A DNA stretch of 51,084 nucleotides. It comes from Nitrospirae bacterium GWC2_56_14. GTDB taxonomy: Bacteria; Nitrospirota; UBA9217. Shown here piece after piece: positions 5,211-36,608 of this stretch. Made by a program: the position numbers and the translations under genes. Numbering within the stretch: position 1 is the first letter of the stretch; every line of letters starts with the position of its first letter. Where the stretch lies: the NCBI GenBank assembly GCA_001803705.1, contig MHDY01000230.1, positions 502-51,585 on the forward strand. Direction: 5' to 3'. Below the pieces are notes generated by a model that made no database searches, was not told the DNA's origin, and worked only from the letters and a program-made list of their open reading frames with translations.

Positions 5211-5290
5211 GAGAAGCCAGGAGACAGGAGTCAGGAGCCAGGAGAGATTTAAACCCTTCTGGCTTCTGGCTTCTGGCTTCTGAGTCCTGG
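5211..5290 (+). repeat. Intergenic imperfect inverted repeat with 7-nt periodic arms (RNA hairpin between rny and ymdB)
   Basis: Left arm GAAG(CCAGGAG)(ACAGGAG)(TCAGGAG)(CCAGGAG)AG, loop ATTTAAA, right arm CCCTT(CTGGCTT)x3 CTGAGTCCTGG. The units pair with one G-U per repeat on the plus-strand RNA but give A-C mismatches on the minus strand. Confidence 0.7.
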
Positions 5291-5297
5291 AGGTTTA

Positions 5298-6077
5298 GTG
5301 AAGGTTCTTTTCATCGGCGATATCATCGGCGAGCCGGGCCGGAAAATGGTGCGGGCCCAGCTTCGCGGGCTCATGGATTTGCACCGTCCGGACCTGGTCA
5401 TCGCCAACGGCGAGAACTCGGCCGGAGGATTCGGCATTACCGCTGATATTGCCGATGAGCTGTTCTTCATGGGGATCGATGTGCTTACCTCGGGCAATCA
5501 TGTCTGGGACAAAAAGGAGATCGAACCCTATCTCAACAAACAGGACCGTCTCATCAGGCCCGCCAACTATCCTTCAGGCAATCCCGGTGTAGGAAGCGTT
5601 GTGGTCTCCACGCCCGGAGCAGGCAAGGCAGCGGTCCTGAACCTGGAAGGACGCGTTTTCATGTCCAACCTGGAAGATCCCTTCCGGTATGCCGAGCGCG
5701 AGATCGAGCGATTGAAAAAAGAAACGCCTGTCGTGATCATCGATTTCCATGCCGAGGCCACGTCTGAAAAGATCGCCCTCGCGTGGCATCTTGACGGCAA
5801 AGCCAGTGCCCTGGTCGGCACCCATACTCATGTTCAGACCGCGGACGAGCGCATCCTGACCAAGGGAACGGCCTTCATTACTGATGTGGGAATGACCGGG
5901 CCTACCGACTCGGTCATCGGTGTGCGGAAGGAACAGGCGATCGCGCGGTTTCTGTACCAGACGCCGCACCGGTTCGAGATCCCCAAGGGGCCGGTCCATC
6001 TGAACGCCGTACTGATCACGATCGATGAAACAACGGGGAAGGCGAACGCCATCGAACGGATCCATATAAAGTCATAG
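5298..6077 (+). CDS. ymdB: YmdB-family metallophosphoesterase (2',3'-cyclic-nucleotide phosphodiesterase type)
   Basis: MKVLFIGDIIGEPGR, GENSAGG, GNHVWD and GTHTHVQTAD motifs. Conserved rny-ymdB adjacency. GTG start preceded by GGAGG. Confidence 0.9.
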   Translation: MKVLFIGDIIGEPGRKMVRAQLRGLMDLHRPDLVIANGENSAGGFGITADIADELFFMGIDVLTSGNHVWDKKEIEPYLNKQDRLIRPANYPSGNPGVGSVVVSTPGAGKAAVLNLEGRVFMSNLEDPFRYAEREIERLKKETPVVIIDFHAEATSEKIALAWHLDGKASALVGTHTHVQTADERILTKGTAFITDVGMTGPTDSVIGVRKEQAIARFLYQTPHRFEIPKGPVHLNAVLITIDETTGKANAIERIHIKS

Positions 6078-6089
6078 AAACCCTTTTGT

Positions 6090-6194
6090 CCGCAGATTTC
6101 GCAGATGGCCGCAGATTTTAAAAAAATAATTCAGGTTTGCCTTTATCTGTGAAATCTGCGTTGCTTAGAAGCGCCTACTTTTGGATTCTGCGGA
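6090..6194. repeat. Intergenic inverted repeat built from CGCAGAT units
   Basis: CCGCAGATTTCGCAGATGGCCGCAGATTTT (6090-6119) faces ATCTGTGAAATCTGCG (6145-6160) and ATTCTGCGGA (6185-6194). Confidence 0.6.
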
Positions 6195-6252
6195 TAATAT
6201 TTTGACCTGATTTTTTTTGAATCTGGGGCCGCGCAGGCCAGACTCCGCAATT

Positions 6253-7443
6253 ATGAAATCTCACATCATCACCGTTACGCAGCTCACCGCGCAGATCAAG
6301 AACCTTCTGGAAGGCTCTTTCCCCGATGTATGGGTCGAAGGGGAGATCTCAAACCTCAGCATTCCCCAGTCGGGGCATTCCTATTTCACGCTAAAGGACC
6401 AGCAAAGCCAGATCCGTGCGGTCCTGTTCCGTTCATCGCAGCGTTTTCTCAAATTTACGCTTCAGCATGGCATCCAGGTGGTCTGTCGCGGAAGGGTGGG
6501 GGTGTACGAGCCGCGGGGAGAATACCAGCTCATCCTCGAATACATCGAACCGAAGGGGGTCGGCGCACTTCAACTTGCCTTCGAGCAGCTCAAGGCAAAA
6601 CTGGAAAAGGAAGGGCTCTTTGACCTGGAACGCAAACGGGAACTTCCGCTTCTGCCGCAGCGCATCGGCATCATCACTTCGCCCACCGGCGCCGCCATCC
6701 GCGACATGCTGCGGGTCATCAAGCGCCGCCATCCGAGAATGCATATTATCATCTATCCCGTTCCCGTGCAGGGGGCGGAGGCCGCTCCCGCTATCGTGGA
6801 GGCACTGCAATACTTCAACCGTGTCGGGAACGTCGATGTGGTGATAACGGGCCGCGGCGGCGGATCTCTGGAGGACCTCTGGGCCTTTAATGAAGAGTCG
6901 GTGGCACGGGCCATCCATGCGTCAACGATCCCGGTCATCTCCGCCGTGGGCCACGAAACGGACTATACGATCTCGGACTTTGTCGCCGATCTGCGCGCTC
7001 CTACGCCCTCGGCTGCAGCCGAGATGGTGGTCGAGAGCGAACACCGGTTCCGTGAGCGTATTGGATCGCTGGAAACCGGGCTCCTGCGGAGCATGCGCCA
7101 ACTGACCGAACAAAGCCGCTCCTCGCTCCGTGAATGCCTGCGGGTGCTCCGGGACCCGCGGCGGATGCTCGAGCAGTACACGCAGCGCGTTGATGAGCTG
7201 ACCAGCAGGCTTGCTCCGGGACTGAACCATCATCTCCGCAAGGACCGTGCCCGGCTGTTGTCATTGGCATCCGCGCTCGATCATTTGAACCCGCTCAGCA
7301 TCCTCTCCCGGGGATACAGCATTACGAAGACGCTCCCGTCCGGCACGATCCTGAAGGACGCTTCCCGGATAAGCCCCGGAGACCTGCTGAGCACCAGGCT
7401 TTATCAGGGAGAGGTTGTTTCCCGCGTGGAAAAGATCACCTGA
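6253..7443 (+). CDS. xseA: Exodeoxyribonuclease VII large subunit
   Basis: OB-fold N-terminus VWVEGEISNLSIPQSGHSYFTLKD, catalytic region GRGGGSLEDLWAFN. ATG 6253 is preferred over the TTG at 6217 in the ORF track. Confidence 0.93.
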   Translation: MKSHIITVTQLTAQIKNLLEGSFPDVWVEGEISNLSIPQSGHSYFTLKDQQSQIRAVLFRSSQRFLKFTLQHGIQVVCRGRVGVYEPRGEYQLILEYIEPKGVGALQLAFEQLKAKLEKEGLFDLERKRELPLLPQRIGIITSPTGAAIRDMLRVIKRRHPRMHIIIYPVPVQGAEAAPAIVEALQYFNRVGNVDVVITGRGGGSLEDLWAFNEESVARAIHASTIPVISAVGHETDYTISDFVADLRAPTPSAAAEMVVESEHRFRERIGSLETGLLRSMRQLTEQSRSSLRECLRVLRDPRRMLEQYTQRVDELTSRLAPGLNHHLRKDRARLLSLASALDHLNPLSILSRGYSITKTLPSGTILKDASRISPGDLLSTRLYQGEVVSRVEKIT

Positions 7444-7504
7444 GCGCCGTTCGGCCGTGTTCGCAGAGGCGATTTTACGAAAGGGCTGCATAAGGATTCC
7501 TCTT

Positions 7505-7533
7505 TTGACACTCCTCCCGTCTTATGGTACTCT
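7505..7533 (+). promoter_or_regulatory. Possible sigma-70 promoter giving a near-leaderless transcript of the HEAT-repeat gene
   Basis: TTGACA (7505-7510), 17-nt spacer, TACTCT (7528-7533). The ATG at 7539 follows within 6 nt and has no Shine-Dalgarno sequence. Confidence 0.35.
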
Positions 7534-7538
7534 AAGCC

Positions 7539-35132: not shown

Positions 35133-35218
35133 CTGTGACGCTCTCTGTTCCCTGTGCGTGTGGGTGCGAATTTACAGCTCTTTACATTATTTAAATGGAG
35201 TTGGTGGGCGGCGAATGG

Positions 35219-35617
35219 CTACGCGTGTTTGTGGAGTTTCACCCCCGGGATCTGCGTGAAGTGCCCGTCGAGGGTGAAAATGGAAAGGTTGTGCTCAATG
35301 GCGATTGCGGCGAAAAAAATGTCGGAGTGGGGAATCGTCAGTCCCTTTTTCTGAAGTGAGGCGGACAGGTCTCCGGCTTTTTGCCAGAGAATTTTGGACA
35401 GTTCAGCGTATTTCAGATGGGAGACGGTCGTCAGGATTTGCGCTTTTTCCTTTTCCGATCTAACGCCCTGCACCAACTCGAACAGGACGACGCCGCAGGT
35501 CCATACCGTCCCTTCGAGGATGAGGGTTTCGAGCGCATCGCCGGCTGCGGAGTTCTGTTTGAAAAACTCTATCCAGACACTTGTGTCCGCCAGTATGCCG
35601 TTATTTTTTTCGCTCAA
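35219..35617 (-). CDS. vapC: PIN-domain toxin VapC
   Basis: 132 aa with [12 protein letters not shown] (first acidic PIN residue) and a C-terminal IFTLDGHF motif. Overlaps the antitoxin gene by 17 nt. Confidence 0.85.
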
Positions 35618-35840
35618 AAAGTTTCTCCCGTTCCCGCTGGGCTTTCAGTTCGCGTTCTTCCTCTTTTTTCCAGTCGTAATCGATCTTGACCTTACCCCGC
35701 AGCGCAAGCAGGTCCATCATTTTCTTTTGCCGGATGAATTCCTGAATAGCGGTGGTAATCGCCTTGGTCTTGGATTTTTCACCGGTGGCTTTCTGCGCCT
35801 CGGAGATAAGATCGTCGGGTATGTTTAATGTTGCACGCAT
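35601..35840 (-). CDS. vapB: VapB-type antitoxin
   Basis: [36 protein letters not shown] is a typical antitoxin N-terminus. AGGAGG lies 8 nt upstream of ATG 35840. Confidence 0.8.
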
Positions 35841-36003
35841 TTCATGCACCTCCTGAATATGCGCTTATTATATGCATGGAGAACGTGAAAGTCAAATGGT
35901 TTTCAGGCCTGAACGAGTTCGATAGTTCGAACCGTGTAAACGGTTGATCCACACGGCGTATATTTTTTCGAGGTATTGTTCCGTCACGGAACACTCTCAC
36001 ATC

Positions 36004-36032
36004 TTGACATCCGTGCCGTCACTTGATACCAT
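36004..36032 (+). promoter_or_regulatory. Possible sigma-70 promoter of the hemerythrin gene
   Basis: TTGACA (36004-36009), 17-nt spacer, TACCAT (36027-36032). Confidence 0.35.
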
Positions 36033-36066
36033 CCACCAACGCTGCACATCTCTCAGGAGGTTTCCC

Positions 36067-36474
36067 ATGGAATGGTCGGACAAATTAGCCGTCGGTGTGG
36101 CCACCATCGACAGTCAGCATAAGGAACTCTTCAAGAGGATCGATAATCTCGTTCTCGCCATCAAACAGCACCGCTGCAAGTCGGAGATCGACGGCACGCT
36201 GAAATTCCTCGATGATTACGCGCGGGTCCATTTTGCGGAAGAGGAAAAACATATGAGGGAAACTCATTACGCAGGCTACGAAGAGCAGGTCGAGGCGCAT
36301 AAACGGTACCTGGCCGCTCTTGTGGAATTGAAGGCCGAGGCGGCTTTGCCGCGCGTATCCGGGAGTTCCTATGACCTGTCTGCGACGACGAATCAGGTGG
36401 TCGTTGACTGGATCGTGGACCATATTCTGAAGCTGGACATGCAGTTTGGAAACTACCTTAAGAACCGAAGTTGA
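36067..36474 (+). CDS. Bacteriohemerythrin-like protein
   Basis: MEWSDKLAVGVATIDSQHKELF, HFAEEEKHM and WIVDHILKLD iron-ligand motifs. AGGAGG lies upstream of ATG 36067. Confidence 0.88.
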   Translation: MEWSDKLAVGVATIDSQHKELFKRIDNLVLAIKQHRCKSEIDGTLKFLDDYARVHFAEEEKHMRETHYAGYEEQVEAHKRYLAALVELKAEAALPRVSGSSYDLSATTNQVVVDWIVDHILKLDMQFGNYLKNRS

Positions 36475-36488
36475 TGGGGCTTTTTATT

Positions 36489-36608
36489 TCGGATTTCGGA
36501 TTGCGGATTTCGGATTAACACCGAAAAAGGAACTTTAATTCCCCTCCACGTTCCGCATCCCGCTGTTTCAATCCGCAATTGGGATAATCCGCAATCCGCA
36601 ATCCGAAA
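36489..36608. repeat. Intergenic inverted repeat built from CGGATTK units (between convergent genes)
   Basis: TCGGATTTCGGATTGCGGATTTCGGATT (36489-36516) faces AATCCGCAATTGGGATAATCCGCAATCCGCAATCCGAAAT (36570-36608). Confidence 0.7.

Follow-up and report, generated by a model that had tools for sequence, protein, structure and literature searches.

What are the intergenic inverted repeats, each of whose arms is itself a short tandem array of 7- to 9-nt words, that are scattered along a 51,084-nt stretch of the genome of Nitrospirae bacterium GWC2_56_14? This stretch, hereafter the window (positions 502-51585 of contig C230), comes from an assembly of 3.16 Mb in 259 contigs that is 75% complete and is called G000 below. 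A preliminary description made from the sequence alone listed eight such loci and left their function open among terminator or mRNA-stabilising hairpins, protein-binding arrays and decayed mobile elements. Sequence inspection and Tandem Repeats Finder (TRF) bear out the existence of all eight and their membership of one architectural family, and a survey of the whole genome confirms that this family of heptamer-armed hairpins is real and beyond chance. Among the proposed functions, that of terminators does not stand and that of decayed mobile elements fits best, in one particular form: the window loci are probably gene-less or half copies of a palindromic element of the type known from 23S rRNA intervening sequences (IVS), in which a gene of the S23p family (PF05635) lies between the arms. 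The reading as protein-binding arrays may hold too, if S23p is the binder. The repeat class as such has already been published, from Xanthomonas, Geobacter and cyanobacteria.

The extent of the family is apparent from a genome-wide inventory, for which, as throughout, genes were called with a crude open reading frame (ORF) model made for this analysis. With at least 3 copies required, TRF returned 344 rows of period-7 arrays (335 after merging of overlaps), compared with 50 rows at period 6 and 53 at period 8. A stricter detector found 174 arrays in the genome but 2 in a third-order Markov genome of equal size, which is not the behaviour of chance low-complexity sequence, and the words do recur at distant loci, as had been noticed in the window: there are 111 arrays of CGGATTK and 32 of the octamer CACGAAGR, followed by CAGGAGT (18), CCAGGGT (18), AAGGCTG, CAGGGTT and CAGGGGT, all five with 15-18 arrays each. 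Although non-coding DNA makes up ~13% of the genome by our own ORF calls, it holds 76% of the arrays. A reverse-complement partner lies no more than 200 nt away in the case of 153 of the 335 arrays, as against 3-11 for the reversed, complemented and direct controls. In all there are ~280 loci, ~100 of them paired and 179 solo arrays, built from ~30 words that look related to each other (a CA-purine-purine-purine-K-K pattern). Within the CGGATTK arrays T and G tend to take turns at the variable seventh position (TG plus GT 147 vs 108 expected), suggesting a 14-nt super-unit, ATTGCGGATTTCGG; descent of this family from one master copy was rejected, the T/G pattern being diverse among arrays.

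The architecture of these loci is remarkably uniform in three respects, the first of which is arm length, sharply peaked at 4-4.5 units in every word family (median 31 nt, interquartile range 27-33 nt). The second is polarity. Where two arrays are adjacent, the G-rich one precedes the C-rich one in 70 cases and follows it in 2, and within the CGGATTK family the G-rich-first order is found in 27 of 27 pairs. Ten of the 70 G-then-C pairs have unrelated words in their two arms and pair poorly, which argues that polarity is more basic than complementarity. The third is position: most pairs sit in co-directional gene strings, immediately before the next ribosome-binding site, and in such gaps the median distance from the upstream stop codon to the pair is 7.5 nt, and that from the pair to the next start 22.5 nt. 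Here 57 pairs are closer to the upstream gene and 20 to the downstream one (p 3e-5). The impression gained from the window that the elements lie directly 3' of genes is thus correct, whereas the association with convergent genes is not general, since 12 of 96 pairs are in convergent gaps, for which the baseline is 12.5%; divergent gaps are under-represented (6 of 96 pairs vs 14% expected, p 0.03). Solo CGGATTK arrays, a median of 2 nt past the stop codon, have the G-rich strand as the sense strand in 37 cases and as the antisense strand in 5 (p 4e-7). The strand bias that the preliminary description had proposed to look for is present in these solo arrays but absent from the folding of the paired loci, where sense and antisense are equal (41 vs 36). 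Together, the G-first order and the sense bias of the solo arrays may reflect the avoidance of exposed C-rich RNA, a Rho loading substrate, or, equally, the common descent of the words. Loop length varies between 3 and 91 nt. The loops of different heptamer loci bear no relation to one another; those of the 8- and 9-mer families are AT-rich and semi-conserved. An ATG is common after the arrays (…CGGAATGA), and as a start codon it was rejected, 8 of 32 opening an ORF of at least 60 aa, which is under a random-ATG control; the ATG is therefore the end of the element.

What complete members of the family contain is indicated by the congener G003, whose gap downstream of tlyA (15479-15601 in the window) holds a small PF05635 gene (E 2e-30) with AGTTCGG arrays on both sides; in the congener G002 this gap is empty and 15 nt long. 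In G000 itself, five genes score above the PF05635 family cut-off. Each of them is enclosed by inverted arrays of 7- or 8-mers with the G-rich arm first, and all have the same layout: stop codon, arm, cargo, arm, ribosome-binding site. Inverted-array flanks were found at 17 of the 2788 called genes and at 6 of the 989 small ones, and 3 of these 6 are S23p genes. S23p is in fact the sole recurrent short cargo between arms; the long-range 'pairs' around other cargo were rejected as mostly neighbouring loci beside ordinary genes, in both orders. When 63 PF05635 loci in 25 genomes of the phylum were scored for inverted repeats between their flanks, 40 reached at least 14, with 3 in the reversed and 10 in the direct control. 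The terminal stem that characterises the S23p/IVS cassette is likewise found, with 84% complementarity over arms of the median length given above. A crude ORF test detected no bias in the orientation of the S23p genes relative to their neighbours (31 vs 27). The G000 S23p protein matches PDB 2gsc (E 2e-20), the crystallised S23p of X. campestris, which is a homopentameric toroid (PMC4990558), and PF05635 also resembles the Avd protein of diversity-generating retroelements (PMC10053308). A literature search for a connection between PF05635 and intergenic heptamer arrays turned up no paper.

Moreover, the word goes with the protein. AAGAAGT accompanies S23p proteins that are 81-91% identical in three genera, CAGGGKN a pair at 90%, AGTTCGN proteins at 69-75% and AAGAAGGT a pair at 74%. 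Words no more than 1 base apart were found for 9 of 25 protein pairs with at least 50% identity and for 6 of 312 more distant pairs (Fisher 6e-8, over related genomes, which are not independent samples). The octamer of the window locus at 27513-27594 also has a counterpart of this kind, as the array flanking a PF05635 gene in the genome G034, GGCACAAA, is one mismatch away from it.

The most abundant word has its own S23p subfamily as well. CGGATTK arms occur at S23p genes in Mucilaginibacter (L022), in Phycisphaerae (L064) and at a third cross-phylum locus (L097), both arms being seen at L022 and L097 and the C-rich arm only at L064, and the three proteins, mutually 46-56% identical, form their own subgroup. 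S23p genes of this subgroup in the congeners G003 and G004 and in G023 again have CGGATTK arms. Their relatives at 52-67% identity have CGGAATK or CGGAGTG arms, and those at 46-48% have AAGAAGT-like arms. The arms of the CGGATTK cassette are better conserved than its leader and trailer, and the persistence of the word across such divergent S23p proteins means that the arms are conserved where neutral DNA would be unrecognisable. It is with this cassette that one window locus shares sequence beyond the arms. The CGGATTK-armed hairpin at 36486-36609 (TRF; no strand assigned) lies in the convergent gap between a hemerythrin gene (35944-36474) and a 1220-aa gene (36609-40271, minus strand), and consists of (ATTTCGG)x4.4 at 36486-36516, (AATCCGC)x3.4 at 36586-36609 and an inner partial arm at 36570-36581. 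Reverse-complemented, the start of its loop, AACACCGAAAAAGG, matches the sequence that adjoins the C-rich arm of the G004 cassette on the inner side (20/20 positions, E 1e-7, comprising 6 nt of the arm and 14 nt of cassette interior), and on the side of its right arm the junction ATTGGG(G)ATAATCCG is common to the G003 cassette. Judged by these matches, the locus looks as a deletion derivative of an S23p cassette would.

Coding sequences are also seen to run into arrays. The C-terminal tail of the CGGATTK-type S23p proteins (L022, L064 and L097) is encoded by the C-rich arm (…IRNPKSEIRN), and a uvrC-like gene in G000, before the cassette at C161:7232-7783, terminates within the G-rich arm (…FFQGTGDRVQGAGKT); the arrays are without stop codons in the frames of the uvrC-like gene and of these S23p tails.

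The element that we envisage would, in its full form, have a PF05635 gene (S23p, the '23S rRNA intervening-sequence protein', an Avd-like four-helix bundle) in a loop between two arms of 3-5 tandem 7-9-nt words, ~31 nt each, G-rich at the 5' and C-rich at the 3' side, and would be lodged in the short spacer from a stop codon to the next ribosome-binding site. Solo arrays would be half-elements, retained mostly where the mRNA contains the G-rich strand. Each word may be recognised by its own S23p or by a factor associated with that protein, which would explain why the arms are conserved despite the divergence of loops, leaders and protein. The ~30-bp stem might be cut in transcripts by RNase III, in the manner of the S23p-bearing 23S intervening sequences, and the insert would then be nearly harmless between cistrons; an RNase III gene (rnc) is present on G000 contig C61.

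Several observations weigh against this reading. No window locus has an S23p gene, cassette-internal remnants are confined to one window locus and one other locus of the genome, and a CGGATTK-type S23p was not found in the G000 assembly, at its 75% completeness. Among the 63 S23p loci, 23 are without a clear inverted repeat, and the correspondence between word and protein could be plain co-inheritance of the cassette. RNase III cleavage of window-type stems is an analogy, and we identified no transposase, target-site duplication or other mobility mechanism. The rny-ymdB gap has different words in four congeners, which requires either repeated insertion at one spot or a fast array-wide turnover. 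Finally, the 23S rRNA genes of G003 and G004 have neither tandem heptamer arrays nor an S23p-sized insert, at ~3001 nt against a 2925-position model; over the first ~700 positions of the Rfam alignment, the part that was read and one that leaves helix 45 outside, they have small expansions near model positions 282-317 and ~583. This comparison rests on the congeners, G000 being without an assembled 23S gene. The window copies themselves sit between protein genes and not in 23S helix 25 or 45. In the rRNA operon of G003 (L213, G003:C2), the two spacer tRNA genes are separated by a CGGATTK hairpin (1166-1229) with 3 nt from arm to arm, and a further heptamer hairpin (AAATTCA, 1316-1376) comes after the second tRNA and before the 23S gene; an rRNA precursor thus tolerates such elements.

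A bolder extension of the S23p proposal, which we offer as a tentative possibility, is that the S23p toroid is a sequence-specific reader of tandem 7-9-nt words at about one unit per subunit, which would explain the 4-5-unit arms. Each subfamily would then maintain or spread its own word, and the cyanobacterial, Xanthomonas, Geobacter and Nitrospirota heptamers would be the footprints of one cross-phylum selfish system, its gene-less copies persisting through removal from transcripts by RNase III.

A comparison of presence and absence in the orthologous gaps of the congeners, as the preliminary description had recommended, found empty sites, conserved sites and sites with a different word. In the ispA-dxs gap (12374-12455), G005 is empty, with 14 nt (AAAGCGAGGCAACC), G002 has a homologous element, and G003 and G004 have other inserts at the identical point; no target-site duplication was seen between the empty and the filled sites. 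The 6090-6194 element is present in G004 and absent from G003 (38-nt gap) and G005 (25-nt gap), and that at 14516-14655 has a shorter version in G004 and is absent from G002, G003 and G005, so that the CGCAGAT elements, like the CACAGAA one, vary in presence between species. The solo array after dxs is kept at its site in G002, G003 and G005 but not in G004 (four of five species). At the site of the 36486 hairpin, G003, G004 and G005 have the identical word, with conserved arms and diverged loops. The rny-ymdB gap has a heptamer-armed hairpin in all four species compared, the word differing between species. Orthologues of the cytochrome region at 26600-28700 were not found in the congeners. 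On a wider scale, the other five genomes of the genus are all rich in CGGATTK arrays (34-243 matches to a three-unit probe), which also occur in several other genera of the family and are almost absent from ten other families of the phylum. An exact scan with one genome per species nevertheless found (CGGATTK)x3.9 in many phyla, including Acidobacteriota, Planctomycetota, Verrucomicrobiota, Bacteroidota and Gemmatimonadota, and further Chloroflexota, Firmicutes, Proteobacteria and the candidate phyla radiation.

The first of the alternatives is replication slippage. The arrays might be pure slippage products, arising in place because the replicase slips most readily on 7-nt units, with neither element identity nor a partner protein, and among the long repeats of many bacteria heptamers are the most frequent class (Mrazek 2007, as cited in PMC4679880 and PMC4692102). 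The arrays are indeed internally homogenised, as in the four perfect CTTCTGG units at 5256-5282, and while the loops of the rny-ymdB hairpins of G000 and G005 are homologous, their arms differ by array-wide substitutions and in copy number (4 vs 7), so that at least this pair diverged in place by array-wide change. Slippage clearly remodels the arrays. It leaves their rules unexplained, however: copy number peaks at 4-4.5 units where a monotonic fall-off would be expected, inverted partners are far over the controls and ordered G-then-C in the ratio of 70 to 2, the identical CGGATTK word occurs in many phyla, and the word tracks the S23p subfamily. As a full account of the family we therefore think slippage unlikely.

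It also seems improbable that the arrays serve to bind a global regulator of the host or a nucleoid protein of the IHF/HU type, as Aklujkar et al. proposed for G. metallireducens, even though the words of its classes 2 and 3 (TCTCCGTS and MTYCTGA) are present here (PMC2700814). Fixed arm length, convergent orientation and spacing from 3 to 91 nt would suit such sites, and so would the finding that each arm behaves as a copy of the family consensus in its own right, without complementarity specific to its locus. Nevertheless, regulator sites would hardly be expected to be stop-proximal and so few in the promoter-bearing divergent gaps, ~30 unrelated words in one genome would demand many regulators, presence varies between congeners beside housekeeping genes, and the word follows the S23p subfamily and not the host lineage.

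The same lack of locus-specific complementarity bears on a third alternative, namely that the elements are RNA hairpins selected as intercistronic stabilisers or terminators for the benefit of the flanking genes, like the enterobacterial repetitive extragenic palindromic (REP) sequences and bacterial interspersed mosaic elements. The folds are certainly very stable: the energies of the six paired window loci lie between -37 and -50 kcal/mol and their z values between -3.7 and -7.0, and 0 of 200 shuffles folded equally well. They are also placed right past stop codons, the solo arrays of the commonest word are strongly sense-biased, and the rny-ymdB hairpin, which all four of the congeners compared possess, folds better in G000 as plus-strand RNA (-48 kcal/mol, z -4.8) than as minus-strand RNA (-31.8 kcal/mol, z -2.0). 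This locus is, however, an exception to a general symmetry, as among 78 loci the sense fold was favoured in 41 and the antisense fold in 36, with 213 G-U pairs in either, and strand-specific RNA selection was rejected for this reason. Within-locus compensatory evolution, the other change that the preliminary description had suggested looking for, was rejected too, since within a word family the complementarity of an arm to its own partner does not exceed that to partners at other loci (18.2 vs 19.2, permutation p 0.97), which indicates that pairing is not preserved at individual loci. T-tracts were seen after 13 of 78 pairs on the sense side and after 24 on the antisense side; with so few, and with most pairs ~22 nt before the next start codon inside co-directional gene strings, the hairpins are not intrinsic terminators. 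In addition, ten of the G-then-C pairs have unrelated words and pair poorly, and G005 copes with a 14-nt ispA-dxs gap. Selection of the hairpins as RNA thus has, in our estimation, little chance of being the explanation.

Three genes with an N-terminal IS200-like Y1_Tnp domain, of ~180-310 aa, are present in G000 (C15:6575-7516, C189:4553-5431 and C235:825-1367), and congeners and other family members have 2-33 copies. Movement by a Y1 or DDE transposase, as in REP doublets (REPINs) with their REP-associated tyrosine transposase (RAYT) or in a classical miniature inverted-repeat transposable element (MITE), is nonetheless highly improbable, for although the copies are short, abundant, ended by inverted repeats and polymorphic in presence, there are no arrays within 2.5 kb of the three G000 Y1_Tnp genes, Y1_Tnp counts do not track array counts over 41 genomes, no target-site duplication distinguishes filled from empty sites, loops are unrelated between heptamer copies, and the sole recurrent cargo, PF05635, is not a transposase.

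In view of the S23p proposal, it is worth comparing the elements with systems already described. A close parallel in layout is provided by the GGGAATC arrays of Xanthomonas campestris and X. axonopodis, reported together with the GGGGAYT arrays of Nostoc (Rehm et al. 2015, PMC4692102). The Xanthomonas arrays are ~90% intergenic, form 70-75 convergent pairs per genome, lie 28 nt from the upstream ORF and 160 nt from the next one, mostly in co-directional gaps, vary in length and sequence between close species and have no known function (PMC4692102). The excess of 7-nt tandem arrays, their mostly intergenic and upstream-ORF-proximal position and their convergent pairing are all found in our genome. 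However, Xanthomonas has one dominant word where this genome has ~30, and the study, which dealt with G-quadruplex formation, reported no fixed arm length, universal G-then-C order or S23p link (PMC4692102). X. campestris, with its GGGAATC arrays, is the same organism that encodes the crystallised S23p (PDB 2gsc). In G. metallireducens, paired sets of 3-5 tandem 7-9-mers on opposite strands at variable distance make up classes 1-3 and a number of four-heptamer elements, and were read, without a test, as IHF/HU binding sites (Aklujkar et al. 2009, PMC2700814). Tandem units of that number and size, in opposite-strand pairs and in several classes, also describe the present arrays, and the words TCTCCGTS and MTYCTGA correspond here to CACGGAGR and CTCCTGA/CTTCTGA arrays; that genome belongs to a different phylum, and neither an S23p link nor positional statistics were given for it (PMC2700814).

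The S23p connection leads to the 23S intervening sequences. That of Coxiella burnetii has an S23p ORF in a 28-bp terminal stem, cut mid-stem by RNase III (Warrier et al. 2016, PMC4990558), and such S23p-bearing sequences, in Coxiella burnetii and Leptospira, are regarded as selfish and horizontally acquired (PMC4990558). The full cassettes, though not the window copies, resemble them in having a PF05635 ORF within inverted repeats that form a stem of ~28 bp. The 23S intervening sequences are located in helix 45 or 25, whereas the elements here are between protein genes and, in G003, between spacer tRNAs; tandem-word arms are not described for them in the account consulted (PMC4990558). Another type is the short tandemly repeated repetitive (STRR) heptamers of heterocystous cyanobacteria, of which Calothrix PCC 7601 has three heptanucleotides (Mazel et al. 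1990, as cited in PMC4692102). Like ours, they are tandem heptamers dispersed over intergenic regions, have no known function and come in several words within one genome. STRR sequences are known mainly as direct arrays used for fingerprinting, and to our knowledge they have been described without inverted pairing or a link to S23p. In marine Beggiatoaceae the intergenic heptamer TAACTGA, repeated 2-6 times, occurs also in distant phyla and is strand-biased with respect to genes, just before start codons, with one indirect repeat in 170 sets (MacGregor 2015, PMC4679880). It is thus start-proximal and almost never inverted, in contrast to the arrays here, which are stop-proximal and half of which are in inverted pairs. 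Lastly, the abundance of intergenic palindromic doublets with variable spacers, often inside operons, recalls REP sequences and REPINs, but each REP arm is a single palindrome and RAYT genes have their own REPs on either side, while here the arms are tandem words and the Y1_Tnp genes are unflanked; the organisation is neither that of REP nor that of CRISPR, as the preliminary description had concluded.

Dispersed bacterial heptamers have been recorded since 1990 without being explained, whether as STRR, as GGGAATC arrays or as 'global regulator sites'. The present genome has a rich form of the class with clear rules of arm length, single polarity and stop-proximal position, and ties it to a concrete protein, as every S23p gene of G000 is bracketed by arrays and words correspond to S23p subfamilies in different genera and in three phyla. 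An old descriptive puzzle thereby becomes testable, through the binding of S23p to its own word and the cleavage of the stem by RNase III. The association also suggests a function for a protein family that is known only from 23S intervening sequences and, as Avd, from diversity-generating retroelements. In practical terms, the elements cause breaks in metagenomic assemblies and may be annotated as ORFs by mistake, and their presence or absence provides a fine-scale strain marker.

The remaining window loci, none of which has been given a strand unless stated, can now be described individually. The hairpin element at 5211-5290 (TRF) lies between rny (3647-5203) and a ymdB-like gene (5298-6077); its left arm is (CAGGAGN)x4 (5218-5245), its loop GAGATTTAAACCC, and its right arm (CTTCTGG)x4 plus degenerate units (5256-5290), the four units at 5256-5282 being without mismatch. 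A CGCAGAT-type element at 6090-6194, recognised by inspection, separates the ymdB-like gene from xseA and folds at -39.9 kcal/mol (z -5.0). It has an AT-rich loop, and its arms, the right one interrupted, are each three 9-mers (CGCAGATNN); copies in the genome number 11 at ~75 nt under strict conditions and 26 places by BLAST. The longer CGCAGAT/ATCTGCG-armed element at 14516-14655, in the dxs-tlyA gap, was likewise recognised by inspection, has the same arms of three 9-mers and folds at -43.9 kcal/mol (z -3.7), so that the preliminary description was right about the presence of these two loci but not about their unit, which is no heptamer. The element at 12374-12455 (TRF) fills the gap between the farnesyl diphosphate synthase gene (11435-12370) and dxs (12467-14386) with (CAGGGTW)x5 at 12376-12411 opposite (ACCCTGA)x4 at 12425-12454, folding at -43.8 kcal/mol (z -5.9). 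The hairpin at 36486-36609 is the most stable, at -50 kcal/mol (z -7.0).

Two of the eight loci turned out to be less than the palindromes they had been taken for. The first, placed at 14387-14414, is a solo (GGATTKC)x4.4 array at 14387-14417 on the plus strand (TRF unit (GGATTGC)x4.4), which begins at the dxs stop codon, lies on the sense strand, has no inverted partner and does not fold (z -0.8); a conserved intrinsic terminator lies downstream of it. In strand and position it conforms to the general pattern of solo CGGATTK arrays. The second, at 15479-15601 downstream of tlyA (14697-15461), does have CACAGAA and TTCTGTG words at its ends, by inspection, but its arms are degenerate and the hairpin they form is weak (z -2.3); related sequence occurs at 12 places in the genome. 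Folding of the window loci is thus strong in six cases, weak in one and absent in one. An Rfam search of the elements gave no family match to any of them; its sole match, at window 1712-1891 (plus strand), was a 6S (SsrS) RNA gene (RF00013, 90 bits, full length).

The octamer-armed hairpin at 27513-27594 (TRF) consists, in order, of (GCACGAAG)x3 at 27514-27537, an AT-rich loop and (CTTCGTGN)x3 at ~27563-27594, folds at -37.4 kcal/mol (z -5.5) and belongs to a family of ~32 arrays genome-wide. It had been assigned to a sigma-54 leader, and this holds as a prediction: a minus-strand match to the sigma-54 promoter motif at 27729-27714, upstream of the hairpin, would put the latter in the leader of a minus-strand cytochrome gene (26630-27517). 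Exact sigma-54-type motifs (TGGCAY-N5-TTGCW) number 4 in the window, vs 0.07 expected by chance, at 27714-27729 (minus), 27961-27976 (plus), 30422-30437 (minus) and 45004-45019 (plus), one of the four falling within a 1399-aa cytochrome gene.

Two other repeat families were noticed. A second, GC-rich family of palindromes (CCCTCTCCCC…GGGGAGAGGG, often with GGGTGAGGGG) is nested in the loops of heptamer or 9-mer hairpins or lies beside them, in G000 at C247:19080-19259, C156:467-730, C17:4326-4400 and C89:4360-4480. In the window, a MITE-like element of 240 bp is present at 22328-22568 and 44661-44899; related sequences occur at ~12 places in the genome, and 4 of these are nearly full-length with ~90% identity.

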